Shown here piece after piece: positions 9,519 through 52,855 of a DNA stretch of 64,000 nt. This DNA is from Abditibacteriota bacterium (lineage in GTDB: Bacteria; Armatimonadota; UBA5829), in the NCBI GenBank assembly GCA_017445025.1, contig JAFSVJ010000028.1, positions 95,752 to 159,751 on the forward strand. Reading direction: 5' to 3'. The translations under genes were made by a program, and so were the position numbers. Position 1 is the first letter of the stretch. Each line of letters begins with the position of its first letter. The notes beneath the pieces were generated by a model. That model saw nothing but the letters and a program-made list of their open reading frames with translations. It made no database searches and was not told the DNA's origin.

Positions 9519-9546
9519 AGATTAAAAATTTAGGAGGAACATTACC

Positions 9547-11816: not shown

Positions 11817-11901
11817 GATTTTACATTTTCTATTTTATATTTTCTATTTAAAAATAATTTTGTGATGACAAAGCATAAACAAAGAAATTCAAGGACAGAT
11901 T

Positions 11902-13254: not shown

Positions 13255-13295
13255 AGCAGAAAGCAGAAAATTAAATTTGCGTTGCAAATTTAAAA

Positions 13296-13362
13296 TCAAT
13301 AATCAAAAATCAAAATCGTGGTGCGACCCACCACGTGTTGTAATTTGTGATTTGTGATTTGG
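13296..13362. repeat. Short palindromic element: AATCAAAAATCAAAATC + a GTGGTGCGACCCACCAC hairpin + GATTTGTGATTTGTGATT.
   Basis: Same family as 18092..18166, 26442..26660, 39013..39060 and 46148..46312. Confidence 0.55.
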
Positions 13363-17926: not shown

Positions 17927-18091
17927 ATTTCTATGCTTTAAAATTAGTTTTTATTGGTTAGAACAAGTAAAATTTCCTTACATAACCATATATATTATAC
18001 TCAAAAAAAAAAAAAACGCAAGTTTTAAGACATAAATGGTGAAAAAAATAAAAAAATTTCATTTCGGGGCAAATAAAAAGCAAAAATAGAT

Positions 18092-18166
18092 AATCAAAAA
18101 TCAAAGTCGTGGTGCTATGCACCACGTATTTCTGCTTTTTACTTTTATTTTTTGATTTGTGATTTA
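18092..18166. repeat. AATCAAAAATCAAAGTC + GTGGTGCTATGCACCAC hairpin + TTTGATTTGTGATTT element.
   Basis: Member of the family listed at 13296. Confidence 0.5.
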
Positions 18167-18244
18167 TGTAAAATTTATGGTATAATAAATATGGATTTGT
18201 AAATATAATATTGGGTGAATGTTACCTTTACTTCCAATAAAGGA

Positions 18245-19845: not shown

Positions 19846-19884
19846 AGTATAAACTTTGGATGCCCGACAAACTTTAAATTCCAT

Positions 19885-22900: not shown

Positions 22901-23022
22901 TAAGAAATATAAAAGAAATTAATATTCTTGAAGAAGAAATAGGAAAAGTTCAAATCAATAACAATATTATGGAATTTGACATTAAACCTTTTGAAATAAA
23001 GAGTTTTCTTATAAAATGTTAG
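19975..23022 (+). CDS. Glycoside hydrolase family 38 alpha-mannosidase
   Basis: The N-terminal catalytic region 'FIGNSHIDLVFMWPERETHRKVGRTFNSLCRLMEEFPHYYFMCSQVPIYEYLKE' is characteristic of GH38. Length of about 1000 aa is consistent. Confidence 0.8.
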   Translation: MNPVYSLETKINNKLKELKALITLKEINMEPWEIRHAKYIDFGNYDYLDDWQTLNIGDFWATSGETAFIKKTVNINNHKGEYIALFLDTDGEGLLYLNGKPFHGVDNFRGYICLTPSAKETETFNLLIEHKAGGYEDFEDKPIKHIFKEAKLLSLDKELESIYYDYLVPFDVACHTKDEITSKLVKNLVYDSLLSVNFNKNRDTVKKALIEEIQNFKDKLSTLPKAPGAVHFIGNSHIDLVFMWPERETHRKVGRTFNSLCRLMEEFPHYYFMCSQVPIYEYLKELYPDTYSQIKELIKEGRFEPIGGTYVQHSTNLLSGESLVRQCLYGKRFFRKEFNYDVKIGWLPDTFGFVHSLPQIYKQAGIDTLITQKLRYNDINSHYEENLPPELLFNWKGCDGSTLLVYHTGSYKHLTTNNMEFMLYNIGYYYNKIKHLPMPDYLAPYGFGDGGGGVNRRELEYIKRLDTAPGFPKVKYGTVKDFTENLPTENLNTIDDELYLEAHRGTYTSQGEIKKLNRLCEIGLRNCEILGVITQNYDKTKLATLWKKTLFNHFHDILPGSSIHEGVIDAKKSYTEILSESNRIIHHNLKVLAKRTNTEGDGVSIFVFNPLSYRREALVSVPITENQIIKDKDGNIVPSQISGNNIIFNANIDAFSGKVYFANIGINKNTSLITFKNNIIDTPLLKITLKDGYISQIYDKDADRELLECDSNVLQVFEDKGGFFDAWDIDPLFEKNKEEFILCSEPTLMEIGPVRCVIRSEYKYNKSSITQDMIVYPNSKRIDFKTQANWHESHTMLKASFKVNTRSTEATYEIPYGSIKRPTTRNNNIERAKFEVCGQRWADLSEPNYGISILNNCKYGYDIKENEMRITLLRSPKHPDATCDMGDHEFTYSLFPHTTCLLKETVKEAHSLNNPLLSTITDNHKGEELTSFVNVLTDNVIIDCIKFAEDTDDIVLRLYEPYGQRGKVTLSFNKNIRNIKEINILEEEIGKVQINNNIMEFDIKPFEIKSFLIKC

Positions 23023-23054
23023 CACTTATAACAGGAGCCTCTGATGGTATAGGG

Positions 23055-23271
23055 AAACAAAAAAATACAAATCATCCAAAAGCACAATTTTTTATAAGCA
23101 ATTTTGAGTGTAGTCGTCGACTGTAGACTCGCAGAATAAGGTTATTTTTAAAGGCAAAAGCCATTTAAAAATGTCCTTAGGCGAGAATCGTCAAGGAGAC
23201 ACGAAACGAAAAAGTGCGTTAAATAAAAAATTAGGGATTTTGAGAGGAGTTGTGATTTTATGTTTTTAATA
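23055..23271 (+). mobile_element. MITE-like element (~217 bp, degenerate ends) inserted at the mannosidase/SDR gene junction and flanked by ~70-bp direct repeats (22987..23054 and 23272..23343).
   Basis: The direct repeats each contain the 3' end of the mannosidase gene plus the 5' end of the SDR gene. The internal sequence is homologous to 4483..4702 and 44695..44909. Confidence 0.7.
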
Positions 23272-23305
23272 CCTTTTGAAATAAAATCTTTTTTAATAAA
23301 ATGAA

Positions 23306-24067
23306 ATGACAGCACTCATAACAGGAGCCTCTGATGGTATAGGCAAAGCATTTGCTTATGAACTGGCAAAAAAACAATATAATTTAATACTCATTGCAAG
23401 AAGAGAAGAATTGTTATCAAAAATAAAATCTTCTCTTGAAAAAGAATATAACATTTCAGTCAATTATTATTCTCTCGATTTGACCACTCAGATAAATGAA
23501 TTTTGCCAAATCATAAGAGATAACAAGCCGGACATCCTTATCAATTCCGCAGGCTTCGGAAGACCCGGGCTTTTTGTGGATTTGGACTTTGCCTGTCACG
23601 CAGAAATGCTCTCAGTCCATATTGAAGCTGTTGTGAAGAGCAATTATGAAGCCTTAAAATATATGAGAGAAAAGAAAGAAGGCATGATTATAAATATCTC
23701 ATCTCTTGCCGGACTGATTTTAGGAAAAGGCTACACTATGTATGGCTCCACCAAACATTTTATAGCAGATTTCTCTCAAAGATTGGCTTTTGAGGCAAGA
23801 AAAGATAATGTCTATATTCAAGCTCTCTGCCCCGGCTTCACATATACAGGATTTCACGACACAGAATATTACCCCCATTTCGACAGAAGCAAATATCCCA
23901 AATTTCTTTGGCAAAGTCCGGAGTCTGTGACACAAGAAAGTCTTAAAAAATATAAAACTCCCCTACTAATTCCAAGGACACTTAACAGATTTATCTATAT
24001 TTTAAGTCAAACTCTTCTTTTTAAATACATAATTGCCAAAATAATGAAAAGTAGCAAATTTGTATAA
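23306..24067 (+). CDS. Short-chain dehydrogenase/reductase (SDR) family oxidoreductase
   Basis: 'TGASDGIGKAFA' Rossmann motif. Confidence 0.75.
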   Translation: MTALITGASDGIGKAFAYELAKKQYNLILIARREELLSKIKSSLEKEYNISVNYYSLDLTTQINEFCQIIRDNKPDILINSAGFGRPGLFVDLDFACHAEMLSVHIEAVVKSNYEALKYMREKKEGMIINISSLAGLILGKGYTMYGSTKHFIADFSQRLAFEARKDNVYIQALCPGFTYTGFHDTEYYPHFDRSKYPKFLWQSPESVTQESLKKYKTPLLIPRTLNRFIYILSQTLLFKYIIAKIMKSSKFV

Positions 24068-26246: not shown

Positions 26247-26441
26247 ATTCAGCCCCCCCACTATGTAAGGGGTTGAATTGCAGCAATCTCGGGGTCCCCA
26301 AAAAGCCCTGCGAATAGCGAAAACAACCCAAGGGATCCCGAAAAGTCGTAGCATAGCAAGACTTTTTGGGAATGGGTTTTAGGGGTGAGAAATAAGCATC
26401 GCTTTTTTGTAAAAACGCCCAAGGCACCCCGTCATTATTAT

Positions 26442-26660
26442 AATCAAAAATAGAAAATCAAAAATCAAAATTGAAAGTGCTAACCTTTAAGAGCAACTGA
26501 AAAGTTAAGAGCCGGCTAATTGGATTATTAATTATTAATTTTAAAAATAGGGGGCGAACCGGCGTGCAAATTTAAAAAGGCGTCTATAAAGCTTAGAGCC
26601 CACCAACATAAGTGGTGCGTAGCACCACGAATTTTGATTTTCTATTTTTGATTTTTGATT
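26442..26660. mobile_element. MITE-like element with ~30-bp terminal inverted repeats (AATCAAAAATAGAAAATCAAAAATCAAAATT / AATTTTGATTTTCTATTTTTGATTTTTGATT) enclosing ~155 bp that includes a GTGGTGCGTAGCACCAC hairpin. The right inverted repeat overlaps the last codons of hydE.
   Basis: Inverted repeats verified by reverse complement. The internal segment 'GCTAACCTTTAAGAGCAACTGAAAAGTTAAGAGCCG' is shared with 46240-46275. Confidence 0.6.
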
Positions 26661-35194: not shown

Positions 35195-36592
35195 TTATTT
35201 TCCAATACAAAATTGTGAGAAAATATAGTCAAGTATATCTTCGGTTGTAGTCTCTCCGGTAATCAAACCCAGTTGATACATGGCATCCGTCAAATCTATT
35301 GCCACACAATCAAGTTCCATACCGTTCTCATTGCTTTCTTTAGCCAACAAAAGAGATTTAACAGCTTTTTTAATTGCGTCAAGATGCCTGTTGTTGGTAA
35401 TCATTAAGTCTTCGCTGCCCACAAAATCTTTGATATATTCATATATAATTGTTTTTAATTTTTCAATTGAAGAAGGTTCTTTAGCACTGATTGTGACAAA
35501 ATTTAAAATATCATTGTTCTTATATGTCAACTTATCAACAGAAGCTAAATAATCTTTGTATTCATTAATAATTAACGGACAAGATATATCTTCTTTATTT
35601 ACCACAAATAAAATATCTTTACTAAAAGTTAAAATATGCGAAAGAATATACTTATCTTCCTCGCTTATCTCTCTTGATCCGTCAAAAACCATTATAATCA
35701 AATCAGCTTCTTCCGATACGGAAAGAGATCTTAAAACACCTTCTCTCTCTATCACATCTTCCGTGTCTCTCACTCCCGCAGTATCACTTATAACCACAGG
35801 AACGCCCTTTATATCCAAACTCTCCGTAATTATATCACGAGTAGTGCCCGGAATATCCGTCACTATAGCTCTTTGACTGTCCAATAGTCCGTTTAAGATG
35901 GAAGATTTTCCCACATTGACACATCCTACCAAACTGACCTTCATTCCGTCTCGAAAATAATAAGACTTTTGATTGGTATTAACAATATTTTCCAAATAAT
36001 CTATTATTTTTGAAAAACTTTTATCCAAATCTTCTCTCTCCGGCTCAAGCACATCTTCCGGGAAATCAATGTTAGCTTCAATAGATGCCCTAATATCCAT
36101 AATCTCTTTATTGATTTCCTTCATTTTCATGCCGAGAGAACCTTTCAGTTGAGAGAGAGCAATTTGTTTACTTCTTTTGGTTTGGGATTTGATTAAATCG
36201 TTTACAGCCTCTGCTTGGGAAAGATCCAATTTCCCATTCAAAAAAGCACGTTTGGTAAACTCTCCGGGTTCAGCAATAACAGCACCGGCTTCCAAAAGAG
36301 AATTAATGATCTCCTCCACAATAATTATATTACCATGGGAAGAGATTTCAATCACATCTTCTCCCGTATATGAATGAGGACCTTGAAATTTGGTAATGAC
36401 AATGTCATCAATTGTTTTTCCTTCAAAATTAAAAAAGTTGCCGTGTAGAATTGTTCTCGGAGCTTGGTTAATAACATCCTCTGAAAATAGCTTATTAACT
36501 ATTTCAAAGCTTTTATCACCACTTACTCTAATAACACTCATACCACCACTGCCTTGTGGAGTGGCTACGGCAACAATAGTATCATTTAGCAT
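35195..36592 (-). CDS. mnmE: tRNA modification GTPase MnmE
   Basis: N-terminal 'IVAVATPQGSGGMSVIRVSG', G-domain, and the C-terminal 'CIGK' motif. Confidence 0.9.
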   Translation of the reverse strand: MLNDTIVAVATPQGSGGMSVIRVSGDKSFEIVNKLFSEDVINQAPRTILHGNFFNFEGKTIDDIVITKFQGPHSYTGEDVIEISSHGNIIIVEEIINSLLEAGAVIAEPGEFTKRAFLNGKLDLSQAEAVNDLIKSQTKRSKQIALSQLKGSLGMKMKEINKEIMDIRASIEANIDFPEDVLEPEREDLDKSFSKIIDYLENIVNTNQKSYYFRDGMKVSLVGCVNVGKSSILNGLLDSQRAIVTDIPGTTRDIITESLDIKGVPVVISDTAGVRDTEDVIEREGVLRSLSVSEEADLIIMVFDGSREISEEDKYILSHILTFSKDILFVVNKEDISCPLIINEYKDYLASVDKLTYKNNDILNFVTISAKEPSSIEKLKTIIYEYIKDFVGSEDLMITNNRHLDAIKKAVKSLLLAKESNENGMELDCVAIDLTDAMYQLGLITGETTTEDILDYIFSQFCIGK

Positions 36593-36634
36593 AATGTTTT
36601 TTATTTGATTTTCTGCTTTCTGTTTTAATATTTA

Positions 36635-37348
36635 TTAATTATCCTTCGGAGAGATTATAACATGTCTCTCCATGCCTTCGCCTTCTGAGTAAGTTTTAAC
36701 ACCCTCATAATTGCGAAGAGCCATGTGAACAATTCGTCTGTCATTGGCACTTTGAGGCTCCATAACAGCTTCTCGTCCGTGCTTAACTACCATTTCAGCT
36801 ATCTTTAAAGCCCTTTCTTGTAATTCTTTGGTTCTCTTGGCTCTGTGACCGTCGGCATCAATTACTATTCTTCTTTTACAAGGGTATTTCTTATTGGCAA
36901 TAATACAGGCAAGATATTGAAGAGAATCCAAAGTTGCACCAAATTTACCGATTAATATTGCTATATCTTCACCCACTATGTTAAAAGCAATACGGTCTTC
37001 TGTCACAGTATCAATAATCAAATTAACCTTGATACCCATTAGTTCAATGGTTTTTTCTATAAACTCTTTAGCTGTGTCAAAGAAAATATCTTCATTTGAT
37101 TCTTCTTCCACCAATACAGGCTTTTCTTCAGGTTCCCCCTCTTCCTTTGTAATGGAAACAGGAGTTGCAGGAGAGGGAGCTTCTTTTTTACTTGCTTCTA
37201 TAACTACTTTGCTTCCTAAACCCAAAAAACCTTTTACTTCTTCTACAACTGAATATTCTATCAAAGAAACGGGAGCACCTAAGGCTTCGCCTGCCGAAGC
37301 AAGTGCGTCCTCAAGATTAGAACCTTCAAATTTTTGTTTTTCGTCCAT
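36635..37348 (-). CDS. jag: Jag/KhpB RNA-binding protein (KH plus R3H domains)
   Basis: R3H motif 'SANDRRIVHMALRNYEGVKTYSEGEG'. Sits in the conserved yidC-jag-mnmE context. Confidence 0.8.
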   Translation of the reverse strand: MDEKQKFEGSNLEDALASAGEALGAPVSLIEYSVVEEVKGFLGLGSKVVIEASKKEAPSPATPVSITKEEGEPEEKPVLVEEESNEDIFFDTAKEFIEKTIELMGIKVNLIIDTVTEDRIAFNIVGEDIAILIGKFGATLDSLQYLACIIANKKYPCKRRIVIDADGHRAKRTKELQERALKIAEMVVKHGREAVMEPQSANDRRIVHMALRNYEGVKTYSEGEGMERHVIISPKDN

Positions 37349-37369
37349 TTATTTAATCCTTATACAAGT

Positions 37370-38581
37370 TTATTTCTTATTATTCTTTTCTTCTTTCGGT
37401 AATTCTTTTACTTTTGTTTCGCTTGTTCCGTTCTCTTCATCATATTTCTTATAAAACATTTTCTGTTGAATGGTTTGGAAAATGTTAAACACAAGCCAAT
37501 AAAGTAAGAATGCACTGGGGAACCCGGCAAACAAGAATGCGAACATTATGGGGAACATGTAGCTCATCATTTTTTGTTGGTCTGCCTGCTGCTTGTCGGC
37601 AACGGGAGTATTCATTTTCATAGAAACGAAAGTTGAAATAATGTATATAACCAAAAGTATTAAGTCTGCTTCTGCAAGATTTGCACCACAAAACCAAACA
37701 ACTTGTCCCGGCTGTCCCAAAACATTTAATGAGAAGTGATGTTCAAAAGTTGAACCTATCCACAAAAATGTTCCCTTTTGGAATTGAATTTCATAAGATT
37801 TTATAACATAAAATAGGAAGAAGAGAATAGGCATCTGTATTAACAAAGGCAAACAACCACTCAAAGGGTTTATATTATGCTCTTTGTATAAAGCCATAGT
37901 CTCCTGACCTAATTTCTGTTGATCGTCTTTATATTTCTCTTGAAGAGCCTTTATCTTAGGCTGAATCTTCTGCATCTCCTTCATAGATCTCATTTGAGTA
38001 TTAAAAAGAGGAGTTAGGACAATCTTAACCACAATGGCTATCAAAACAATGGCAAACCAATAAGAAAACCCCGGTTTTGAGCCTGTCAACTTAACGAGAA
38101 AATCAATTATCTTATAATTAAGTTTTTCAGAATTTTGCTTATCAAGAAGCAACCCCACTTCCTGTTTTTTCTCTTTGATTTCTACAACTTTGTTCTTAAT
38201 CTCTCCGATTTCTTTTGTGGTAAACCCGGCTTTATCCAATTCGGCATCAGTTCTATCCCAACGAACCACAAGCATTTTCAAAGCTTCATAAGCTCTTTGA
38301 GTTTGTTTGGGGTCTCCTGATGCTGCTTGAATTTTGGCAAGTTCATATTGAGCATATATAGCTTCCGGAGTATCTTTGGTTTTCTTGTTTTTAAGAATAT
38401 CATTAAAACATTCGGAAGCCTCAGCTTGAAGTTCCTTTTTCTCAGAGGATGACTGAGAAGCCTCAGCCTTTTGTACATACTCCATTCCCTTGTTGTATAG
38501 TTCTTGAGATTTTGTCTCATCTGCAAAAACACCAACTGACAAGAATAGAATAAAACATATAAATAAAAATCTTAATTTCAT
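37370..38581 (-). CDS. yidC: Membrane protein insertase YidC/Oxa1 family with an N-terminal TPR-like periplasmic region
   Basis: 'LPLLIQMPILFFLFYV' YidC core, and gene context. Confidence 0.75.
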   Translation of the reverse strand: MKLRFLFICFILFLSVGVFADETKSQELYNKGMEYVQKAEASQSSSEKKELQAEASECFNDILKNKKTKDTPEAIYAQYELAKIQAASGDPKQTQRAYEALKMLVVRWDRTDAELDKAGFTTKEIGEIKNKVVEIKEKKQEVGLLLDKQNSEKLNYKIIDFLVKLTGSKPGFSYWFAIVLIAIVVKIVLTPLFNTQMRSMKEMQKIQPKIKALQEKYKDDQQKLGQETMALYKEHNINPLSGCLPLLIQMPILFFLFYVIKSYEIQFQKGTFLWIGSTFEHHFSLNVLGQPGQVVWFCGANLAEADLILLVIYIISTFVSMKMNTPVADKQQADQQKMMSYMFPIMFAFLFAGFPSAFLLYWLVFNIFQTIQQKMFYKKYDEENGTSETKVKELPKEEKNNKK

Positions 38582-38689
38582 TAAATAACCTTATAATATA
38601 ATTCTTAACATATCCATGTAAAAGTTTGGGAAAGGGCACTTGTTATTTACCATTTTTAAATAGATTTGCTACGCAAATCATTTTTCTTC

Positions 38690-38960
38690 TTATTATCGCA
38701 AAATCGTTCCGCACCCCCCGCCGTTTTTGACAGTTTTCCTACGGAAAACACCAAAAACGACTACAGGGTGGGGGGTCTATAAAGGGCTCCCGAAAAGTCG
38801 TAAGACTTTTTGGGAATAATGCCCTATGGGGATGGGGGCCCGACTTCGGGGCTACCCCCCTCCGGCTCCCCCCTATATGCCTTCTAGTATAGGCTGGTCA
38901 ACAGAATTTTACCCCCATAGGGGGGGAGAGAGTGGTGCTCCTACATTACCATTTCCCTTG
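38690..38960. repeat. GC-rich, G/C-run-rich repeat mosaic inserted between yidD and yidC (CCCCCC/GGGGGG runs and a CCCGAAAAGTCGTAAGACTTTTTGGG hairpin).
   Basis: Composition clearly differs from the AT-rich background. It contains copies of the hairpin families seen elsewhere in the window. Confidence 0.5.
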
Positions 38961-39088
38961 ACTAAAGTATCTATCCACCATAGCCCACCTTAAAAATTAG
39001 GGCCCGGTAACCTAAGTGGTGCGAACCACCACAAGTTTGATTTTCTATTTTTTGATTATTGATTTTAAATTTGCCATTGGCAAATTTA

Positions 39089-39316
39089 TTATTTCACGGG
39101 GTCATCTCCCCCTTTTGACCATGGGTTGCAACGAATTATTCGCCATATTCCCAATAAAGAGCCTTTAAGAACTCCATATTTTTCAATAGCTTGAGCCGTA
39201 TATTCGGAACAAGTGGGATGAAAACGACAAGTTGGTGGCAAAAACTTTCTTGAAAAAGGTTGATAACATCGTCTTATAAGAAAAAGACAAAATTTCTTAA
39301 TCACCTGTGACCCCAT
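39089..39316 (-). CDS. yidD: Membrane protein insertion efficiency factor YidD
   Basis: '[19 protein letters not shown]…[16 protein letters not shown]'. Confidence 0.85.
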
Positions 39317-39644
39317 TTAAAATTCCGACTTTGCTTAATAGACTGTCCAAACTCATCTTTAACCTTCTATAGTCCTTTTCTTTTGCCCCCTTAAGAACTA
39401 CAATAACCGCTAAATATGGCTTCAAGACCTCAAGCTCAAGATAAATAATCTCCGAAAGCCTACGCTTTATTTTGTTTCTTTCACAGGATTTTCCGTATTT
39501 TTTGTTAATAGAAAAACCTACTTTAAAACAATAACTTTTCGGATAAAAGTAAAGAACAAAATCTTCATTTGCTACTTTTTTTCCTTTTCTGTAAACAAAC
39601 GAAAACTCTCTGTCCTTTCTGATACGATTTTCTTTACAAAGCAA
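39297..39644 (-). CDS. rnpA: Ribonuclease P protein component
   Basis: Basic protein in the rpmH-rnpA context ('[24 protein letters not shown]'). Confidence 0.85.
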
Positions 39645-39719
39645 ATCTAAACCTTATATTAAATACTTAAAAAGTATGGAAATATCATCGTGGTATGATC
39701 TCATACCACGCAATAAAGA

Positions 39720-39854
39720 TTAAACGGTCAGTGACCATCTTCCTTTTTGGCGTCTGTTGGCAAGGACTTTTCGCCCACCCTTAGAAGCCATTCTTGCCAT
39801 AAAACCATGAACTCTGTGCATCTTACGGTTTTTGGGCTGATATGTTCTTTTCAT
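39720..39854 (-). CDS. rpmH: 50S ribosomal protein L34 (44 aa; not in the ORF track)
   Basis: Translation: [44 protein letters not shown]. Confidence 0.9.
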
Positions 39855-40146
39855 TATAACCTCCATAAAAAGACAATCATTATAAATTATATCACAAATC
39901 GGGCTCTTTTGTCAAATTATACAAAAAAACTACCTGTTAATAATATAAAAAAACCACATCTAATGTCTCTAACAAATTAAATTTTCTCTAAAAATTGTAT
40001 ATTAATATAAAAATGTAGTATAATAATATTAGGTGTATTAAATTTAAAAATTATTAATTATATTTTTATTCATATTTATAGAAAATAACTTGTTTATATT
40101 AGGTGTCACTTTTTATAATCTATTGACATATTAATAGGAGGCTTTT

Positions 40147-41874
40147 ATGGAGCTTTTACATAACAGATATGAAATAATTAAAAGGCTTAGCGATACCACC
40201 GTCTGTGAAGTCTATTTGTGTAAAGATAACACAAACGACACTTCCGTCAGTGTTTACAAAGTCAAGTCTTCCTTTATGCAGGATGTTTCTTTTGTAAACG
40301 GTTTGACACAGGGTATTATTGATTGCAGAGACCTTAATCATGCAAATACACTAAAATTTATAGATGTGGATACTGACCCGGATAACGAAAGTATTATCTA
40401 TGTTTACGAATATGCCGACGGTGTTTCTCTTAAAGAAGTTTTTGCCAGACAAGCCAAACTGCCATTGCAAAAATCCATAGAAATTGCGGTTAACGTCCTT
40501 CAATCCCTTGACAATGCTCACTTAATGGGAATTTGTCACGGAGACCTTTACACTGATGATGTTTTTATCACCCAGGATGGTCATGTTAAAGTTCGTGGTT
40601 TCGGTAGAAAAGACGGTATAGAGCAATCTTCCATTGCCAAAGAACACCTATCTCTTGAAACCATAAGATACCAATCTCCGGAAGTATTAGAAAACCAAGG
40701 CCTATATGAATCCAGTGACGTTTACTCTGTAGGTGTAATTCTCTATCAAATGCTCACGGGACGATTGCCCTTTGACGGAAATACCTCCGTTGAAATTGCT
40801 ACCAAAATATTAAGAGATGCTCCACTATCACCGAGAATGATTAACAGAGACCTTTCCGCTTCTCTCTCATCTCTTATTCTTGAATCCATTAACAAAGAAT
40901 ACAACGCTCGTGTAGGCACAGCATCCCTCTTTATCTCAAGATTAACAGACGCACTGAGAGGATACAAGCAAGGAGAATACTCAGCACCAAAAGAACATAT
41001 TGCCATAAAACAAGAAACGGGAAAAGACAAAAAATCAGTTATTCCCATGCTCCTTGTTTTGTTTGTGGTAGCTTGTGTCTTAACCGCAGCCATTACGGTT
41101 GTAGCAATAAACGGTAAAAAGATGCAAACCCCTAATCTCATAGGATTAACAGAAGAAGAAGCTATCAACAAGCTCCAAGGGCTTAAATTAGGCTTTAACA
41201 AAGGAGAAGACAGATTCTCCACAGACTATGGTGCAGGTGTGATTTGTGACCAAAGCCCAAAAGCCGGAGAAAAAATAGGTAAAAAAGAAAAAGTTGAATA
41301 TTACCTTAGCAAGGGTGCTCCGGAAATCAAAATGCCTTATATCATAGGTCTTGATTATGAAACAGCAAAAGAAAAGTTATCTATGGGTAATTTCACCATT
41401 GAATTAAAAGAAGAATTTTCAAACTCCGTTCCCGACGGATCGGTTATAAGCACATCTCCGGAAACCGGTGTTACCTTGAGCAACGGTGCTCCAATTACCA
41501 TTACAATTTCCAAGGGTTCAGGCGGAGGCTCTTACACCAGCAGCGGAACAACCTCAGGCAGAATTAATTACGGAAATTCCGAAACAGGCGCTCCCACATA
41601 CACAGGTGATAACCCGGAAGGAAACGACTCTGAAGACAGACCAAGAAGAAGTTCAAAACAGGGCAAAAAAGTATCTTCTCAGGGTTCCGACACTCCCACA
41701 GAGACAACTACTTCAAAGAAAACCGATGAAGGAAAAACTTCAACCAAAAAAGAAGAAGCAAAAGTTGATACTCCCAAGCCTCAACCTAAGGAAACATCCA
41801 AACCTTCCGAAAGTCACAGTTCCTACTCTTCTTCCGGAGGCTCTACACCCGACGCAACAGTTGATTTTGAATAA
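40147..41874 (+). CDS. Ser/Thr protein-kinase-like protein with a transmembrane segment and PASTA repeats. The catalytic motifs are degenerate, so it is likely a pseudokinase.
   Basis: HGD in place of HRD, 'GFG' in place of DFG, APE-like 'SPE'. Two PASTA-like repeats after the transmembrane segment, followed by a low-complexity Ser/Thr/Pro tail. Confidence 0.6.
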   Translation: MELLHNRYEIIKRLSDTTVCEVYLCKDNTNDTSVSVYKVKSSFMQDVSFVNGLTQGIIDCRDLNHANTLKFIDVDTDPDNESIIYVYEYADGVSLKEVFARQAKLPLQKSIEIAVNVLQSLDNAHLMGICHGDLYTDDVFITQDGHVKVRGFGRKDGIEQSSIAKEHLSLETIRYQSPEVLENQGLYESSDVYSVGVILYQMLTGRLPFDGNTSVEIATKILRDAPLSPRMINRDLSASLSSLILESINKEYNARVGTASLFISRLTDALRGYKQGEYSAPKEHIAIKQETGKDKKSVIPMLLVLFVVACVLTAAITVVAINGKKMQTPNLIGLTEEEAINKLQGLKLGFNKGEDRFSTDYGAGVICDQSPKAGEKIGKKEKVEYYLSKGAPEIKMPYIIGLDYETAKEKLSMGNFTIELKEEFSNSVPDGSVISTSPETGVTLSNGAPITITISKGSGGGSYTSSGTTSGRINYGNSETGAPTYTGDNPEGNDSEDRPRRSSKQGKKVSSQGSDTPTETTTSKKTDEGKTSTKKEEAKVDTPKPQPKETSKPSESHSSYSSSGGSTPDATVDFE

Positions 41875-41889
41875 AAACAGGATATATTT

Positions 41890-42546
41890 ATGAAAAATAT
41901 TATTATAATGCCTTCAATTTTAAGTGCGGATTTCAGCATAATGAAGGAACAATTAAATGATGTAAAGCAAGCAGGAGCAGACGCTATTCACTGCGACATT
42001 ATGGACGGACATTTTGTGCCTAACATAACTTTCGGACCGGGATTTATAGAAGCTTGTGCAAAGGTATGCGACTTGCCTTTTTATGTACACCTTATGATTG
42101 AAAATCCTGATCAATACTTGGCAGCCTTTGCCAAACCGAAAAATGTAGTTGAAATAGGAGTTCACGAAGAAGCTTGTGTTCATCTCCACAGAACCGTTCA
42201 AAACATAAAAGCCCTTGGCAAGAGAGCTTGTGTGGCTCTTAACCCCCACACTCCCGCCTCTAATTTGGATTATATTCTTGATGACCTTGACGCTGTTTTG
42301 GTTATGACAGTAAACCCGGGCTTCGGTGGTCAAAAGTTCATAGAATCACAGCTCCGTAAAATAGAAGAAATCCGTAAGGAAGCGGACAGGCGAGGACTGG
42401 ACCTGGACATTCAAGTAGACGGTGGTGTGGACGGTATCACCAGCAAGAAAATTGCTGTCGCCGGTGCCAATATGTTTGTGGCAGGCTCCTATGTCTTTAC
42501 CAACAAAACTCTGTCTATGAAAGAAGCCATTAAAAGTTTGAGATAA
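41890..42546 (+). CDS. rpe: Ribulose-phosphate 3-epimerase
   Basis: 'MPSILSADFSIMKEQLNDVKQAGADAIHCDIMDGHFVPNITFGP'. Confidence 0.9.
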   Translation: MKNIIIMPSILSADFSIMKEQLNDVKQAGADAIHCDIMDGHFVPNITFGPGFIEACAKVCDLPFYVHLMIENPDQYLAAFAKPKNVVEIGVHEEACVHLHRTVQNIKALGKRACVALNPHTPASNLDYILDDLDAVLVMTVNPGFGGQKFIESQLRKIEEIRKEADRRGLDLDIQVDGGVDGITSKKIAVAGANMFVAGSYVFTNKTLSMKEAIKSLR

Positions 42547-42548
42547 AA

Positions 42549-42923
42549 ATGAATTACGCCCTAAGTTCAATAATAACCATGCTCTTTGGCATTTTAGGAG
42601 GCATATTCTCTTTGGTGTTTTTTGCCATTGAGTATGGAAAGTGGAAAAGAAAAGTAATTGCCATAAGTATGGAGCAAAAAATAATAAGAAGTGTTTCTTT
42701 TATTTTTATGCTTTTAATCTTTGGAGGAATTTTCCTTTTCGGTTTCTTTGGAATGGGAGGGCAAAAAAAAGTAGCTCTTGTGACTTTTCTGTTGGTTTTG
42801 ATATTGATTTTGTTTTTGCTTATTAATCTCTCCGTAGATTTGATTTTAACAAGAAAAAAGAAATATTTTCTCAAAAAAGAAGATTTTCAAAAATGTCTTT
42901 TTAACAGAGATTTAAAAGATTAA
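42549..42923 (+). CDS. Small membrane protein, hypothetical
   Basis: Three predicted transmembrane segments. Confidence 0.4.
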   Translation: MNYALSSIITMLFGILGGIFSLVFFAIEYGKWKRKVIAISMEQKIIRSVSFIFMLLIFGGIFLFGFFGMGGQKKVALVTFLLVLILILFLLINLSVDLILTRKKKYFLKKEDFQKCLFNRDLKD

Positions 42924-42925
42924 CC

Positions 42926-43984
42926 ATGAACAAAGATTTTATGCTCTATGCTATAGATATGGCAAAACAATATTTGCCAAGCCCCAATCCTCGTGTAGGA
43001 TGTGTTATAGTAAAAGATGACAACATAATAGGTTTCGGTGCCCACATCAAAGCAGGAGAAGCCCACGCTGAAGTGAATGCTGTTAACTCTTGCACAGAAT
43101 CCACAAAGGGAGCAGATGTCTACGTCACATTAGAACCTTGTTCTCACTTTGGAAAAACTCCACCTTGTGCGGATATGCTTTGCAAATTAGGCATAAAAAA
43201 TGTTTACATTGGAATGAAAGACCCGGATGAAAAAGTATCCGGGAAAGGTATTGAAAAACTAAAAGCCGCAGGTATAAATGTTGTTGTGGGAATTTGCGAA
43301 GAAGAATGCAGAGAAATGAATAAGGGGTATATTAAACACAGAACTACAGGCTTGCCTTACATTGTTCTCAAATCAGCCATGACCTTAGACGGTAAAATCG
43401 CCACAAGGAGTGGAGACTCCAAATGGATAACCAGTGCGGAAGCTCTCTCTTTCTCTCACAAACAAAGGAAAGAATCCGACGCCATTATGGTAGGAGGAAA
43501 CACAGAAAAGGAAGACAATCCTACCCTAACGGCACGTTGTGAAACCGTCACCTACCCCAACAGAATAGTTTTAACAAGTCGCAAAATAAACAAAAATGCC
43601 AATATTTTCACAGTCCCGGGAAAAGTTTTTATTTGTTCTCTTTTAGGGGATTTTAAAGAAGAAAAAGAAAATAACGGTATTTGTGAAATTGTTCATGTGA
43701 CAGCCAAAAATCTTGTGGATTTGTTGAAATACTTTGCCTCTTGCGGTATAATGAGATTGTTAGTCGAAGGCGGAGGCACTTTGGTAGGCTCTTTTCTCAA
43801 AGAAAAATTAGGAGATGAATTGATGCTCTATTACGGAGCAAAAATCATTGGTGATGCGGGAGCAGTGTGTGGCATCTCAAACATCTCAGTTGATAAATTA
43901 AGCGACGCCATAAATGTGGAAATTGTAGATATTATTAAATTTAGAAAGGATTTTGTGGTTAAAGCCAAACCTATATTTAAGTAA
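42926..43984 (+). CDS. ribD: Bifunctional riboflavin biosynthesis deaminase/reductase
   Basis: 'HAEVNAV…TLEPCSHFGKTPPC' deaminase zinc motif. Confidence 0.85.
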   Translation: MNKDFMLYAIDMAKQYLPSPNPRVGCVIVKDDNIIGFGAHIKAGEAHAEVNAVNSCTESTKGADVYVTLEPCSHFGKTPPCADMLCKLGIKNVYIGMKDPDEKVSGKGIEKLKAAGINVVVGICEEECREMNKGYIKHRTTGLPYIVLKSAMTLDGKIATRSGDSKWITSAEALSFSHKQRKESDAIMVGGNTEKEDNPTLTARCETVTYPNRIVLTSRKINKNANIFTVPGKVFICSLLGDFKEEKENNGICEIVHVTAKNLVDLLKYFASCGIMRLLVEGGGTLVGSFLKEKLGDELMLYYGAKIIGDAGAVCGISNISVDKLSDAINVEIVDIIKFRKDFVVKAKPIFK

Positions 43985-44614
43985 ATGTTTACCGGAATAG
44001 TTGAAGAAATAGGAAAAATAGCTTCAATTAATGTTGGAGTTGTTTATGATTTAATTATAAAATGCCCCATAACGGCACCAAAATGCTCCATAGGTGACAG
44101 CGTAGCCGTAAACGGTATATGTCTTACTGTGACAAAAATAAAAGGTGATTTACTCTCTTTTAATGCCGTGAGAGAAACCATAAGCAGAACCTCTTTAAAA
44201 GAATTAAAAGTGGGAAGTGAAATAAACCTTGAAACTGCTCTGACTTTATCTAAACCCATAGGAGGCCATTTGGTTTCAGGTCATATTGACGGAGTGGGAT
44301 TAATTTCAAACATTCTCAATGTTGGTGACTCAAAGGAAATAACCTTTTCTGCGGGAAAAGATATTTTAAAATATATTATAGAAAAAGGATCTGTTTGTAT
44401 TGACGGGATATCCTTGACTGTAGCATCGGTCTCTTCGGACAGTTTTAAAGTTGCCTTTATACCGCACACCCTTGAAAATACTTCCCTTAAAAGCAAAGGC
44501 ATTGGTTCAAATGTCAATATCGAATGTGATATAATAGGAAAATATGTGGAAAAATTACTCAACAAAAGTAGTGAAAAATCACTGATTGATTTATTGAAAG
44601 AAAACGGATTTTAA
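43985..44614 (+). CDS. ribE: Riboflavin synthase alpha subunit
   Basis: 'MFTGIVEEIGKI'. Confidence 0.85.
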   Translation: MFTGIVEEIGKIASINVGVVYDLIIKCPITAPKCSIGDSVAVNGICLTVTKIKGDLLSFNAVRETISRTSLKELKVGSEINLETALTLSKPIGGHLVSGHIDGVGLISNILNVGDSKEITFSAGKDILKYIIEKGSVCIDGISLTVASVSSDSFKVAFIPHTLENTSLKSKGIGSNVNIECDIIGKYVEKLLNKSSEKSLIDLLKENGF

Positions 44615-44748
44615 TGGATTTTATAATAAATGATTTTGAATTTGCGACAATAGAAGATGCAATTAAAGATATACAACAAGGTAAAATGTTAATTTTTAAA
44701 ATCACAAATCACCAAAAAGATCAATTTTTCGCAAGAAATATGGAATGA
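44614..44748 (+). pseudogene. Duplicated 5' fragment of ribBA (first 27 codons) that reads into the inserted MITE and terminates.
   Basis: 'MDFIINDFEFATIEDAIKDIQQGKMLI' is about 90% identical to the true ribBA start at 44913. Confidence 0.6.
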
Positions 44749-44909
44749 AGTCGTCGACCGTAGACTCGGAACAAAATGTTTTTTTTCAAGGCATTAGCCA
44801 TTGATAAAATGTTATTATGTGAGAATCGTCAGGAAGACACGGAAAGACATATTTCGTTAAGCGAAAAAATAGAGATTTTTAGGGGAGTTGGGTTTTTAAA
44901 AATAAAAAA
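44695..44909 (+). mobile_element. MITE-like element (~215 bp) inserted at the ribE/ribBA junction and flanked by ~84-bp direct repeats (44611..44694 and 44910..44993).
   Basis: Direct repeats read from the sequence. The insert is homologous to 23055..23271 and 4483..4702 ('GAAGTCGTCGACCGTAGACTCGG', 'GAGAATCGTCAGGAAGACACGGAAAG'). Confidence 0.7.
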
Positions 44910-44912
44910 TTA

Positions 44913-46130
44913 ATGGATTTAATAATGAATAATTTTGAATTTGCGACAATAGAAGATGCAATTAAAGATATACAACAAGGTAAAATGTTAATCGTTGCTG
45001 ATGATGAAGATCGAGAAAACGAAGGCGATTTCATAATGGCTGCGGAAAAAATAACCCCTGCAGATGTAAATTTTATAACAAAATACGGAAGGGGATTGGT
45101 TTGTTGCCCAACCACAGGAGAAAGATTGGAAGAATTAAAACTTCCTATGATGGTTCAAAACAATACAGCTCCTTTAGGAACAGCTTTTACAGTAAGTGTA
45201 GACGCTCTCAAAGGAACAACCACAGGAATTTCTTGCAATGACAGAGCCATAACCCTAAATGCTATGGCAAATCCAAACACTAAGCCTGAGGATTTGGGAC
45301 GTCCCGGTCATATTCACCCTCTCAAAGCCAAGGATGGGGGCGTGTTGGCAAGAGCGGGACATACGGAAGCTGTGGTTGACCTGTGTAAATTGGCAGGTTT
45401 ACATCCCACCGGTGTCTTATGCGAAATACTTAAAGAGGACGGCACTATGGCAAGGGTGCCGGATTTGATTGAAATATCAAAAAAATTTAATTTAAAATTT
45501 ATAACCATTGCAGAAATAATCAAATACAGACGAAAACACGAAAAACTGGTAAAGAGATCTGCGGAATGTCACCTTCCTACCGAATATGGAGATTTTAATA
45601 TGATTGCATACGAAACATCCATAGAAGCAGACCCCTATATAGCTTTAACAATAGGAAATATAGCTGACGGTGAACCTTGTTTGGTTCGGGTTCACTCAGG
45701 ATGTTTTACCGGCGATGTTTTAGGCTCAAAACGATGTGATTGCGGTGACCAACTACACAAATCAATGGAAATGATTGCAAAGGAAGGCAAAGGAGTTGTG
45801 GTTTATATTCAACACCACGAAGGACGAGGGATTGGCCTTATAAATAAATGCAAAGCTTACAAACTGCAAGAAAAGGGAAGAGACACTGTAGACGCCAATT
45901 TAGAATTGGGCTTTCCCGCAGATATGAGAGATTACTCATTAGGCGCACAAGTCTTAATGGACTTAGGCGTCACAAAAATGAGACTTTTAACTAATAACCC
46001 AAAGAAATATGTTGGACTTTCCGGATACGGATTGGAAATAGTGGAAAGAGTGCCTATTGTAATAAAACCAAATGAAATTAATAAAGATTATTTGGAAACA
46101 AAGAAAGAGAGAATGGGACACTTATTGTAA
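44913..46130 (+). CDS. ribBA: Bifunctional 3,4-dihydroxy-2-butanone-4-phosphate synthase / GTP cyclohydrolase II
   Basis: 'RENEGDFIMAAE', 'RVHSGCFTGDVLGSKRCDCG'. Confidence 0.9.
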   Translation: MDLIMNNFEFATIEDAIKDIQQGKMLIVADDEDRENEGDFIMAAEKITPADVNFITKYGRGLVCCPTTGERLEELKLPMMVQNNTAPLGTAFTVSVDALKGTTTGISCNDRAITLNAMANPNTKPEDLGRPGHIHPLKAKDGGVLARAGHTEAVVDLCKLAGLHPTGVLCEILKEDGTMARVPDLIEISKKFNLKFITIAEIIKYRRKHEKLVKRSAECHLPTEYGDFNMIAYETSIEADPYIALTIGNIADGEPCLVRVHSGCFTGDVLGSKRCDCGDQLHKSMEMIAKEGKGVVVYIQHHEGRGIGLINKCKAYKLQEKGRDTVDANLELGFPADMRDYSLGAQVLMDLGVTKMRLLTNNPKKYVGLSGYGLEIVERVPIVIKPNEINKDYLETKKERMGHLL

Positions 46131-46147
46131 ATTATAATCAAATACAG

Positions 46148-46312
46148 AAAATCAAAAATCAAGAATTCCATTCCCCGGTCACTCCAAATCCCAAAAGTTG
46201 AGTTTACGAAACTATTAAGGATTTAGGGTTAAGGGGACAGATGCTAACTTTAAAGATCAACTCTAAAGTTTAGAGCCGATTTTTGATTATTGATTATTAA
46301 TTATTGATTTTT
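46148..46312. repeat. Composite repeat: AATCAAAAATCAAG-ended element carrying a divergent copy of the C/G-clamped element (46173-46239).
   Basis: Shares 'CTAACTTTAAAGATCAACTCTAAAGTTTAGAGCCG' with 26477-26510, and its ends match 13296. Confidence 0.5.
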
Positions 46313-46328
46313 AAAAACGAGGTGAAAT

Positions 46329-46787
46329 ATGATATTTGAAGGTAATTTTGATGCCAAAGGACTTAAATTTGCCATAGTATGTTCAAGATTTAATGAACTA
46401 ATTACAAGCAAACTTTTAGGCGGTGCTATGGATGCCATAAAAAGACATGGCGGTGTCAAGGAAGACATTGATGTGGCTTGGGTGCCCGGTTCCTTTGAAA
46501 TTCCTTTGATTGCAAAAAAAATGGCTGAAAGCGGAAATTATAACGCTGTTATTTGTTTGGGTGCGGTTATAAGAGGTGCTACGGGACATTATGATATGGT
46601 GGCTAACGAAATGACCAAAGGCATAGCACAAGCAAGTATGTCAACTGGAGTTCCGGTAATATTCGGAGTTTTGACCACAGATACAATAGAACAAGCCATT
46701 GAAAGAGCCGGAACTAAAAGCGGAAACAAGGGCTTTGATTGTGCCAATACAGCCATTGAAATGGCAAATTTAATCAAAAAATTATAA
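46329..46787 (+). CDS. ribH: 6,7-dimethyl-8-ribityllumazine synthase
   Basis: '[28 protein letters not shown]'. Confidence 0.9.
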
Positions 46788-46825
46788 ATTATTCATTATT
46801 ACTAACAAAAAAAAGGGACAAAGCT

Positions 46826-47683
46826 ATGTTTACAAAATGTTATAAAGAATATTGTAACTTTCTCACAAGAGCAAGCAGAAGCGAATATTGGATATACACC
46901 ATTATAATGAGTCTTATCAACTCAATATTGTTAGCCATTGCAATATCTATTTTTGTTATATTAATTAAAAATGGAACAATAAACAATAATATGTCGGAAG
47001 AGGCTTTTGTAAGATTCTTTTTTACATCCCCTTATCTGTTAGTTTATATAGTTTTATCACTTATCAGTTCAATTATCACTTGTCCTTGGTATGCAGTGGC
47101 AGTTCGACGACTTCACGATATAGGCTATAACGCTTGGTGGCTTTTGATAAGTTGCATTCCTATCATAGGCGGAATTTGGTTTTTGGTTTTAACTCTTTTG
47201 CCGGGACAGAAGGAAGACAATCAATGGGGAGCAAACCCTCATAATGTTCCTTCAGAAAATATAGACCAAATCAGCAAATGCGGTTACTGTTTTAAGAAAG
47301 CTTTTGCCAAAACCTTTGATTACAGTTCAACCTCACCCATAGAAGAATATTACGGTTTCGGTTTTGTATTCTCTATTTTAATTACAATCTTTTTTATAAT
47401 TGCAACAATTATATCATATTTTGTAAATTTAAGTGCCGAACTTTGGCCCGTATATTACTGCTTTATTTTTATGTTAGTAGGTTTATGGATCTTAGAAACA
47501 CTGCTTCAAAGCATTCCCCTTATGGTCAGAAGATTGAGAGACGCAGGATTTTCACCCTATCTGGCTTTACTGCTTTTGCTCAATTGGAATATTGTCACAT
47601 ATATCTTAATGGTATTTTGCAGCCAGCCCACCAAACAAGCAGAGGAAACCAAAACCCCACCCTCTTATGACCAAAATATCTAA
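46826..47683 (+). CDS. DUF805-family membrane protein (two repeats)
   Basis: 'RRLHDIGYNAWW' and 'RRLRDAGFSPY' signatures. Confidence 0.65.
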   Translation: MFTKCYKEYCNFLTRASRSEYWIYTIIMSLINSILLAIAISIFVILIKNGTINNNMSEEAFVRFFFTSPYLLVYIVLSLISSIITCPWYAVAVRRLHDIGYNAWWLLISCIPIIGGIWFLVLTLLPGQKEDNQWGANPHNVPSENIDQISKCGYCFKKAFAKTFDYSSTSPIEEYYGFGFVFSILITIFFIIATIISYFVNLSAELWPVYYCFIFMLVGLWILETLLQSIPLMVRRLRDAGFSPYLALLLLLNWNIVTYILMVFCSQPTKQAEETKTPPSYDQNI

Positions 47684-52446: not shown

Positions 52447-52855
52447 ATTTGTGTAGCAAATTCCACGGGTTCCCGAAAACCCCCGCTTGCGAATTACCCT
52501 AGGGTCCCCTAAAAAACCCTTGCGTAGCAAAACTTTTTGGAAATGTTTTTTTTGGATTTAGAATAGTCCTCCGACTTTTTGAGATTTGGGTAAGGAGGAT
52601 ATAGGGGGGGATATTTAAAGCGAATTTTTGCATTCACTCGCTTTGTGAGATAGAAGCCTAATAATCTACAGAGCAACCCAAATAAGAAAGTGTATCAATT
52701 GGGAAATATAAAAAAATTTTTAATAGCAATGCTTAAAAATTGTTTTTTTTTGATATGTTATAACACTATCGGGATTGCAAATGTTTCTTTTTACAATTAC
52801 AATTCACAATAAAAAAAATTCCCCATAAGGAGAATTCTTTTTTTTGTTTTAATTA

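Follow-up and report, generated by a model that had tools for sequence, protein, structure and literature searches.

The window studied here, i.e., the whole stretch of 64,000 nucleotides that was analyzed, contains a riboflavin (rib) operon in which ribE and ribBA are separated by a small fold-back element with terminal inverted repeats (TIRs). The features of this region are the following:

43985 to 44614, + strand: ribE, riboflavin synthase of 209 aa (from the list of open reading frames; the Pfam domain Lum_binding is found in its orthologues at the loci L004, L019 and L022)
44611 to 44693, + strand: upstream copy of an 83-nt repeat, with the ribE stop, the spacer and ribBA codons 1 to 23
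44614 to 44748, + strand: putative dead-end ORF of 44 aa (from the same list), running from the ATG of a TAATG into the element
44694 to 44909, + strand: fold-back (TIR) element "E", subtype A, non-coding, 216 bp (from its TIRs, fold, family covariation and an nhmmer score of 194.5)
44706 to 44723, + strand: conserved core of the left arm, AAATCACCAAAAAGATCA, from the comparison of the family copies
44783 to 44810, + strand: weak sigma-70-like site, TTTTCA-16-TAAAAT with an upstream TG (9 of 12 matches), the only such site within the element
44864 to 44890, + strand: conserved core of the right arm, AAAAAATAGAGATTTTTAGGGGAGTTG, from the same comparison
44910 to 44992, + strand: downstream copy of the 83-nt repeat, which probably holds the functional ribosome-binding region and start of ribBA
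44925 to 46130, + strand: ribBA (DHBP synthase / GTP cyclohydrolase II), 401 codons from the conserved start
46131 to 46310, no strand assigned: a second, different small TIR element filling the ribBA-ribH spacer (repeat families D6/D15)
46329 to 46787, + strand: ribH, lumazine synthase (from the list of open reading frames; DMRL_synthase domain in orthologues)

A rib operon split by an element with a duplicated junction

A first-pass annotation of this DNA had described a MITE-like insertion splitting the rib operon exactly at the overlap of the ribE stop and the ribBA start. The insertion is there, but its left end lies 23 codons inside ribBA. The element is bracketed by the two copies of the 83-nt direct repeat, identical at 80 of 83 positions (96%, three mismatches), and the duplicated segment begins 3 nt ahead of the ribE stop and reaches codon 23 of ribBA. 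The ribE stop itself (TAA, 44612–44614) is within the upstream copy. The duplication of the ribBA start and the candidate 44-aa ORF that runs into the element had both been recognized correctly, and so had the presence of an intact ribBA downstream, although its start had been placed at 44913. An in-frame ATG at this position does open an ORF of 405 aa (44913–46130). However, the close RibBA relatives are all 400–401 aa long and begin with M-x-x-F/Y, which identifies ATG 44925 as the conserved start; the ATG of the TAATG "overlap" (44614 and 44913) is an additional in-frame ATG farther upstream, specific to the lineage. In the upstream repeat copy the conserved ribBA ATG reads ATA (44626–44628). 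Compared with four relatives, ribBA could be aligned free of gaps and gave dN/dS values between 0.03 and 0.06; the gene is intact and under purifying selection.

Relatives with RibBA proteins 88%, 82% and 73% identical lack the element and have a compact ribE-ribBA junction of 6–23 nt (uninterrupted in L003, L022 and L019, with 6, 13 and 23 nt, respectively). Once the element and one repeat copy are subtracted, the window is collinear with these three loci, and the element-free relatives share the compact synteny prkC-rpe-x-ribD-ribE-ribBA-ribH. Their ribBA-ribH spacer is 19–85 nt where the window has the second TIR element. A separately assembled ENA contig (L001) covers positions 44103–46340 of the window with 2 mismatches over 2238 nt and the same repeat-element-repeat order, so the structure of the rib locus is not an assembly artefact, and the observation of an element-split rib operon with a duplicated junction is confirmed. 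Each end of the rib duplication carries a TTAAT microhomology; since other loci do not show it, we do not take it for a general rule. GC skew gave no sign that the divergence point of yidC and prkC is the replication origin.

A family of hairpin elements with long flanking duplications

The termini of the element are imperfect inverted repeats with arms of 35 nt, 77% complementary, that are kept in 13 copies. The arms conserved in the family are AAATCACCAAAAAG ... TAGGGGAGTTG, and the family core has a constant length of 185 nt. The rib-locus copy is predicted to fold as a single long hairpin (-53 kcal/mol; z about -4.9 for both strands). Over the family alignment 95.5% of the cells are paired, versus 80.7% in shuffles, and compensatory changes occur at 34 of 62 pairs (21.2 +/- 2.2 in shuffles and 5–11 in slid controls); the hairpin spans the full length of the element and covaries strongly. 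The outermost tips differ among copies yet remain complementary, and examples such as TTTTAAAAT, AAGGTGTAAAC and TCTCAAAT fit no fixed consensus. The conserved mismatches of the stem, at three tandem GA/AG and two single A.G sites, are all purine-purine on the + strand (121 cells versus 0 C.T). The ratio of G.T to A.C is 40:13 counting symmetric internal loops and 34:2 without these loops, a strand asymmetry that we regard as suggestive. An internal ORF of 45 aa in the rib element (44776–44913) has early stops in the L005 and L010 copies, as read from the alignment, and no Rfam family matches the element itself, even at E<=10.

The window contains three copies and another two that belong to a sister subfamily; metagenome contigs contain at least 13 more, sister-subfamily copies included. 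The small size, the TIRs, the multiple dispersed copies and the lack of conserved coding capacity are those of a MITE. The short target duplication of fixed length that a MITE would have is not seen, the lengths found here varying from 20 to at least 118 bp. The other two family copies in the window are:

23058 to 23265, + strand: second copy, between a GH38 alpha-mannosidase gene and an SDR gene
4484 to 4699, - strand: third copy, with a subtype B interior and a 20-nt duplication (4700–4719 and 4464–4483), next to a terminator hairpin

The second copy has diverged flanking duplications of ~76–82 nt (22982–23057 and 23266–23347) across the stop/start junction; in a 93% relative, for which only the gene map was compared, the GH38 and SDR genes overlap by 7 nt with no gap. 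Most differences between the duplicates at the SDR locus are synonymous-type changes; for a duplication made at insertion, this needs an extra assumption, the later import of an allele through recombination. In the metagenome contigs we found flanking duplications of 80 nt (L007), at least 118 nt (L017), ~100 nt (L009) and ~65–75 nt (L016), together with two that meet the contig end (at least 52 nt in L010 and at least 40 nt in L018). Arrays of repeats and elements are present in L007, L012 and L017; that of L012 is a repeat-E1-repeat-E2-repeat array of two different subtypes. Across window and metagenome copies the duplications often extend over a gene start, and at every locus they directly adjoin the element ends. 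No clear long duplication was found at L005, L013, L014 and L045, that of L011 is weak, and some flanks are too short to judge. The duplicated flanks of L009 and L011, at first supposed to contain the 3' ends of an SRP-RNA and of a tRNA, respectively, gave no Rfam match at the gathering threshold and neither identity is claimed. In 10 of 11 informative loci it is the same element end that points to the start of the downstream gene (sense orientation), a count that leaves out three loci without downstream flank. Several of the metagenome contigs are short and break at or inside elements of the family. The duplication had at first been treated as incidental; it is instead the signature of the element family and, in our proposal, the reason why the insertion is tolerated.

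Neither an autonomous element nor a transposase with matching ends turned up in the window, in 14–16 metagenome loci, in 185,579 GTDB species genomes (two scans) or in IMG/VR. Among the species genomes the right-arm motif had 0 matches and the left-arm motif 20, each an isolated chance match in an unrelated taxon that has no right arm close by; the scan of IMG/VR gave 0 matches. The sole transposase of the window (18443–19870, minus strand) was rejected as a partner, being of the IS3 family with unrelated TIRs. We found no earlier description in the literature of MITEs with long duplications.

Origin of the duplication and expression of ribBA

We consider it probable that a non-autonomous fold-back element of ~210 bp, from a multicopy family of this uncultured AT-rich lineage, inserted in the rib operon with a long duplication. 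The family would make very long target-site duplications of variable length; here the target would have been cut at points 83 bp apart, and gap repair would have duplicated the 83-bp segment on either side of the element. We infer that the duplication formed at the moment of insertion, and likewise an enzyme responsible for it; the outermost tips, variable yet complementary, are unlike those of classical DDE elements. In this process ribE would keep its stop by means of the upstream copy, and ribBA its ribosome-binding region, start and N-terminus by means of the downstream one. With the ends of both genes rebuilt by the duplication, the insertion would be nearly neutral though physically inside a gene, and the upstream copy would be a decaying decoy, its conserved ATG already changed to ATA. 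Transcription of ribBA-ribH would most probably be read through from the prkC-rpe-ribD-ribE operon, with the element forming a long hairpin in the mRNA.

The first-pass annotation had named read-through or a promoter inside the element as the routes to ribBA, and a possible rewiring of the distal rib genes. In its full form the promoter idea would be a case of promoter delivery, in which the element blocks or attenuates the operon and an internal or right-end promoter drives ribBA-ribH, uncoupled from ribD-ribE. We regard it as unlikely. The TTTTCA-16-TAAAAT site with its upstream TG at 44783–44810 might be such a promoter, but promoter-like sites are not enriched between 41500 and 47000 (22 versus 16.6 +/- 3.3 in shuffles), and this lone candidate, found also in L010 and L018 (same spacing) and in L005 and L011 (altered spacing), is missing from the other subtypes. 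In favor of promoter delivery, the same end is turned towards the downstream gene start in 10 of the 11 informative loci; against it, the alignment showed on inspection no outward -35/-10 pair that is conserved within the conserved right arm. A further point in favor is the -53 kcal/mol hairpin that the transcript would carry; a further one against is that no terminator-like site exists in 44694–44909 on either strand. What we found is not an intrinsic terminator/promoter cassette, there being no terminator and one weak, subtype-specific promoter-like site. Furthermore, at several other loci the elements are at operon-internal junctions, where read-through must be tolerated. An element-borne promoter for ribBA has no real support, and read-through transcription is the likeliest way in which ribBA would be expressed. 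Rewired expression of the distal rib genes is possible; there is no positive evidence for it and plain read-through is simpler.

Nor can the missing FMN riboswitch be connected to the element. Its absence, already remarked upon, was borne out by a covariance scan with RF00050, both for the whole window, at the gathering threshold, and for 39500–47500, at E<=10. The loci of L003, L004, L019, L021 and L022 also lack it at the gathering threshold, and since element-free relatives are among those without an FMN riboswitch, the absence is ancestral and predates the element; it is a lineage trait. The rib operons with an FMN riboswitch (Bacillus ribDEAHT, RF00050) have the same gene order ribD-ribE-ribBA-ribH, but here there is no RF00050 match and the rib genes come directly after prkC-rpe.

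It is quite unlikely, but worth weighing, that the element is not a cut-and-paste DDE MITE and moves by a single-stranded (+)-strand intermediate, a hairpin of RNA or ssDNA. Synthesis primed by the hairpin itself or by the target would then produce copy-specific complementary tips and long variable duplications, with gene starts favored and a fixed orientation. The covariation is consistent with it, extending over the whole length, also into the interior, where no transposase-binding terminus lies; the copy-specific tips are still complementary, although covarying tips could reflect subfamily structure. The stem mismatches, purine-purine on the + strand in 121 cells versus 0 C.T, point in the same direction, as does the excess of G.T over A.C (40 to 13), an asymmetry that becomes weaker once the internal loops are counted. 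So does the sense orientation in 10 of 11 loci, a count from which the three loci without downstream flank are omitted. The failure to find a matching transposase also agrees with this route, but none of the copies is linked to a reverse transcriptase or an HUH enzyme. The single-strand transposons of the IS200/IS605 type are not known to make target duplications, and the palindrome-associated elements (PATE) of this type (no duplication, subterminal hairpins) differ from the element described here, which has duplications and a single full-length predicted hairpin. We give an equally low chance to the element representing an undescribed class of strand-specific hairpin mobile elements, with a (+)-strand intermediate, sense insertion near gene starts and duplications of 20–130 bp.

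Very unlikely is a duplication that was not made at insertion, arising either by unequal crossing-over between strains with nearby insertions or by tandem duplication followed by insertion. The copies at the SDR locus, differing mainly by synonymous-type changes as if they were two functional alleles, and the repeat-element arrays of L007, L012 and L017 would be understandable in this way, but at least eight independent loci would each need paired, gene-disrupting parental insertions in the same orientation. In addition, every locus has its duplications flush with the element ends, and the 20-nt and 80-nt intergenic duplications share the same geometry. Finally, an error of assembly, through a repeat-induced cycle or a chimera in the graph, is hardly conceivable: several short metagenome contigs do end at or inside elements, but the two repeat copies differ at three positions, the independent assembly repeats those differences, and neither ribE nor ribBA has a broken reading frame.

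Known parallels and significance

ERIC/IRU and the Correia elements of Neisseria are small, non-coding, multicopy imperfect palindromes found in intergenic or operon-internal positions. They are transcribed together with their neighbors, form hairpins in the mRNA and can alter its processing or provide promoters. The element described here resembles them in being a small, non-coding, multicopy imperfect palindrome, but it is unrelated in sequence. Moreover, ERIC/IRU and Correia elements duplicate just the TA dinucleotide and stay outside coding sequence, whereas this family enters the 5' ends of genes, which it would rescue by the long duplication.

The only known parallels for such duplications, rare among bacterial transposons, are IS1634/IS1549 and the IS1202 group. 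IS1634/IS1549 make long duplications of variable length, 8–514 bp (PMC2266710), a range that includes the long variable direct repeats found here (20, ~65–75, ~78, 80, 83, ~100 and at least 118 bp). However, they are autonomous elements of 1.5–2 kb with a DDE transposase, in contrast to a non-coding hairpin of ~210 bp whose partner was not found. Their published terminal consensus, C-----YT, is not seen here, where tips vary between copies, and most members of the IS1634 family make duplications of 5–6 bp, unlike this element. The unusually long target-site duplications of the IS1202 group, 16–28 bp (PMC10132070), match the 20-bp case at 4484–4699 and are never near 65–118 bp. This group has TGT...ACA ends and a TnsB-like transposase, neither of which is present here.

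If the insertion did occur with its long duplication, as we propose, a transposon can enter the 5' end of a biosynthetic gene while sparing both that gene and its upstream neighbor, the 83-bp duplication rebuilding the stop/start junction. Gene starts and operon junctions would be added to the "safe" target space, and the insertions would leave behind decoy starts as well as dead-end ORFs that annotators will misread. For riboflavin biology the message is modest, i.e., an operon without an FMN riboswitch, with or without the element. The family, short, multicopy and easily aligned, would be a tractable system for the origin of long staggered target cuts, and no model exists for the long duplications of IS1634/IS1549 (PMC2266710); a class with a single-stranded intermediate, if true, could shed light on them. 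Through homologous recombination the long flanking repeats would also allow insertions to be reversed or amplified, as fits the repeat-element-repeat-element-repeat arrays, and gene starts may in this simple way acquire phase-like variation.

A duplicated ribE-ribBA junction

The first-pass annotation held that an element insertion splits the rib operon and duplicates the ribBA start, and this is borne out by two 83-nt direct repeats enclosing a 216-bp insert, by a matching separate assembly and by relatives in which the junction is uninterrupted. The locus contains the following features, as read from the window sequence and its ORFs.

43985-44614, plus strand: ribE
44611-44693, plus strand: upstream repeat copy, 83 nt, 80/83 identical to 44910-44992
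44614-44748, plus strand: dead-end ORF of 44 aa, opened by the upstream copy and ending within the insert, as had been claimed
44694-44909, plus strand: element, 216 bp between the repeat copies, with 35-nt imperfect terminal inverted repeats (TIRs)
44910-44992, plus strand: downstream repeat copy, leading into the intact ribBA ORF
44913-46130, plus strand: ribBA ORF, 405 aa, intact, with DHBP-synthase and GTP-cyclohydrolase-II domains
46131-46310: a different small TIR element, filling the ribBA-ribH spacer

The structure is real, because a separately assembled ENA contig (L001), spanning window 44103-46340 with two mismatches, carries the whole repeat-element-repeat arrangement, down to the three positions at which the copies differ. 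We retrieved relatives of RibBA via the contigs encoding them. The gap between ribE and ribBA was 6 nt in L003 (RibBA 88% identical), 13 nt in L022 (82%) and 23 nt in L019/L020 (73%), and the window, minus the insert and one repeat copy, is collinear with all of these. The rib locus thus carries an insertion plus duplication, and the compact gene string of L019 (PASTA kinase, rpe, small ORF, ribD, ribE, ribBA, ribH) shows the ancestral layout. By RibBA, the host is nearest to Armatimonadota/Abditibacteriota MAGs (64-69% identity). The site appears to be an insertion hotspot that has been disturbed repeatedly, because two other relatives carry other sequences at the same junction: in L004 (RibBA 86% identical) an unrelated 660-bp composite of GC-rich hairpin repeats (L004:1477-2135), and in L002 (93%) 92 nt 5' of ribBA that are unrelated to ribE.

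The rib operon has been invaded twice, since the second, different TIR element occupies the ribBA-ribH spacer, which measures 198 nt in the window vs 19-85 nt in relatives. The arms of this element are AATCAAAAATCAA repeats, with a nested hairpin, and its kin lie at about 26437-26660, 18073-18170, 13284-13340 and 11681-11850. Hairpin repeats of ~48 nt (CCAAGGGnTCCCGAAAAGT...ACTTTTTGGGAATGG) were also found in the window (15007-15054, 26328-26375, 52499-52546, and nested at about 2100-2140), occurring solo and nested in larger elements, including the copy in contig L014. Directly 3' of ribH, L003 has phage terminase large-subunit genes (L003:1983-3858), suggesting that a prophage adjoins the operon in that lineage. 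At 35195-40147 of the window, yidC-jag-mnmE (minus strand) are followed by a 1.5-kb stretch (38581-40147) containing no ORF >=150 aa and then by the plus-strand prkC-rpe-rib string; the region could be origin-proximal, GC skew not being decisive at that scale.

The insertion had been placed exactly at the overlap of the ribE stop and the ribBA start, with the ATG of that overlap (TAATGG) as the latter. Its left end actually lies 23 codons inside ribBA, and the stop/start junction is restored to its right by the duplication. The conserved start is ATG 44925, and the overlap ATG (TAATG, 44614/44913) an extra, non-conserved in-frame ATG, because close relatives are all 400-401 aa long with an M-x-x-F/Y N-terminus and the window RibBA aligns to them gap-free from 44925. 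The repeat copies differ at three positions, all within 12 nt at the start codon (44621-44632 vs 44920-44931), a clustering expected by chance at ~0.02 under uniform mutation, (22/83)^3. One of these differences changes the conserved ribBA ATG of the upstream copy to ATA (44626-44628), and the cluster may reflect selection against this decoy start. The ribBA gene itself is full length, with dN/dS of 0.03-0.06 against four relatives.

The element family and its flanking duplications

The rib insert folds as a single long hairpin on either strand (-53 and -45 kcal/mol, z ~ -4.9 vs dinucleotide shuffles). A right-arm motif scan of JGI metagenome contigs found 14 loci and a profile search added further copies; motif scans of 185,579 species-representative genomes and of IMG/VR found no true copies. 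The host bacterium, AT-rich (31-38% GC) and uncultured, encodes DUF1559/prepilin-type proteins. In the window, a two-gene module of a GntR-family regulator and a divergent DUF1559/prepilin-type protein is duplicated at 2318-4376 and 8269-10242 (70-83% identical, 5957 nt apart).

Element copies and flanking duplications (lengths from local alignment of copy flanks)
44694-44909: rib copy; 83 nt
23058-23265: same-core copy between the GH38 alpha-mannosidase and SDR genes; about 76-82 nt, here too spanning a stop/start junction
4484-4699, minus strand: variant copy with a different interior; 20 nt
about 900-1190, plus strand: sister-subfamily copy, related arms
1992-2316, minus strand: sister-subfamily copy, related arms
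L007: 80 nt
L009: about 100 nt, diverged
L010: at least 52 nt (contig end reached), gene start included
L016: about 65-75 nt
L017: at least 118 nt
L018: at least 40 nt (contig end reached)

The two sister-subfamily copies share arm cores with the main family, but their interior is longer and contains small nested hairpins; they form a composite-transposon-like inverted pair around a nitroreductase gene (1358-1870). A diverged main-family copy occupies the orthologous intergenic site in the relative L045, where the SDR gene comes directly after the nitroreductase gene.

The element core has a constant length of 185 nt. Aligned, 13 copies share a single hairpin fold: 95.5% of cells are paired (80.7 +/- 0.9 in shuffles), and 34 of its 62 pairs show compensatory changes, where shuffles give 21.2 +/- 2.2 and slid controls 5-11. 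The outermost five to nine positions are copy-specific, yet complementary. Conserved stem mismatches are all purine-purine on a defined plus strand, with 121 cells vs 0 C.T; they comprise three tandem GA/AG sites plus two single A.G mismatches. In addition, G.T outnumbers A.C by 40 to 13, internal loops counted.

A long flanking duplication is the signature of the family; local flank alignment gave no convincing one for four or five copies, the flanks of some being too short to judge. L012:1-700 (minus strand) is a repeat-E1-repeat-E2-repeat array, in which two different element subtypes (E1, E2) alternate with three diverged copies of a segment carrying a ribosome-binding site and ATG. The L007 and L017 contigs open with an element end and then the repeat, suggesting similar arrays. 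For the SDR locus, a gene map was available from a 93% relative: its two genes overlap by 7 nt, with no 290-bp gap, in agreement with the upstream copy of the window. The flanking duplicates of the window's SDR copy (22982-23347) are about 89% identical. Most of their differences are changes of synonymous type (AGT/TCT for Ser, CTT/TTA for Leu) in what remains of the GH38 C-terminus, which suggests that recombination with a diverged allele later replaced one side.

On the simplest reading, the target would be cut at positions tens to >100 bp apart and gap repair would then duplicate the interval. That many duplications include a start codon would reflect survivorship, because an insertion in the first 15-30 codons would be harmless only if the duplication extends back beyond the ribosome-binding site. 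Movement via a single-stranded hairpin intermediate, something more novel, seems to us improbable.

ribBA expression and comparison with known systems

The annotation had ribBA expressed either by read-through or from a promoter inside the element, which may have rewired the distal rib genes. In our scan of 41500-47000 the element lacked terminator-like sites on both strands and contained only one weak promoter-like site (44783-44810, 9/12 matches), restricted to one interior subtype; promoter-like sites over this region (22) were not above shuffles (16.6 +/- 3.3). Inspected by eye in the family alignment, the conserved right arm shows no outward-facing -35/-10 pair that is conserved across copies. 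For these reasons read-through from the upstream operon would be the most economical account of ribBA expression. The annotation's observation is confirmed and its mechanistic speculation partly supported. The reported lack of an FMN riboswitch upstream of the rib genes held: there was no match in the whole window at the gathering threshold, in 39500-47500 at E<=10, or in the rib loci of five relatives. This absence is a lineage trait unconnected with the insertion, because the loci of element-free relatives also have none. The plus strand of the element is sense to the downstream gene at 10 of 11 loci where that gene is known (binomial p ~0.012; three further loci gave no call). Possible causes are a polar effect of elements in the reverse orientation, insertion by a strand-specific mechanism, or a role at the RNA level.

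ERIC and Correia elements, transcribed palindromic repeats whose likely host effect this element's would resemble, duplicate TA only. The element resembles MITEs (non-autonomous TIR elements) in size, TIRs, copy number and lack of coding capacity, but not in having a short fixed-length duplication, and no MITE with duplications this long was described in the literature searched. Duplications of 16-28 bp are made by the IS1202 group (PMC10132070), and long, variable direct repeats of 8-514 bp, with "no mechanistic model", by IS1549 and IS1634 (PMC2266710). Membership of the IS1634 family cannot be asserted, because only the duplication behaviour is common to both and the published terminal consensus is not matched by the variable tips of the element. 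No partner IS was identified. The window's only transposase was rejected as such, since it belongs to an unrelated IS3-family element:

18261-19823: IS3-family insertion sequence with a 475-aa ORF (18443-19870, minus strand; NF033516, 189.5 bits vs 160-bit cutoff) and inverted repeats of roughly 43 nt that begin CCCCCCTAACGCAGT and have no relation to the hairpin element

Overall, the best description of the rib locus is that of a nearly neutral insertion by a fold-back element, one of a family with exceptionally long target duplications.
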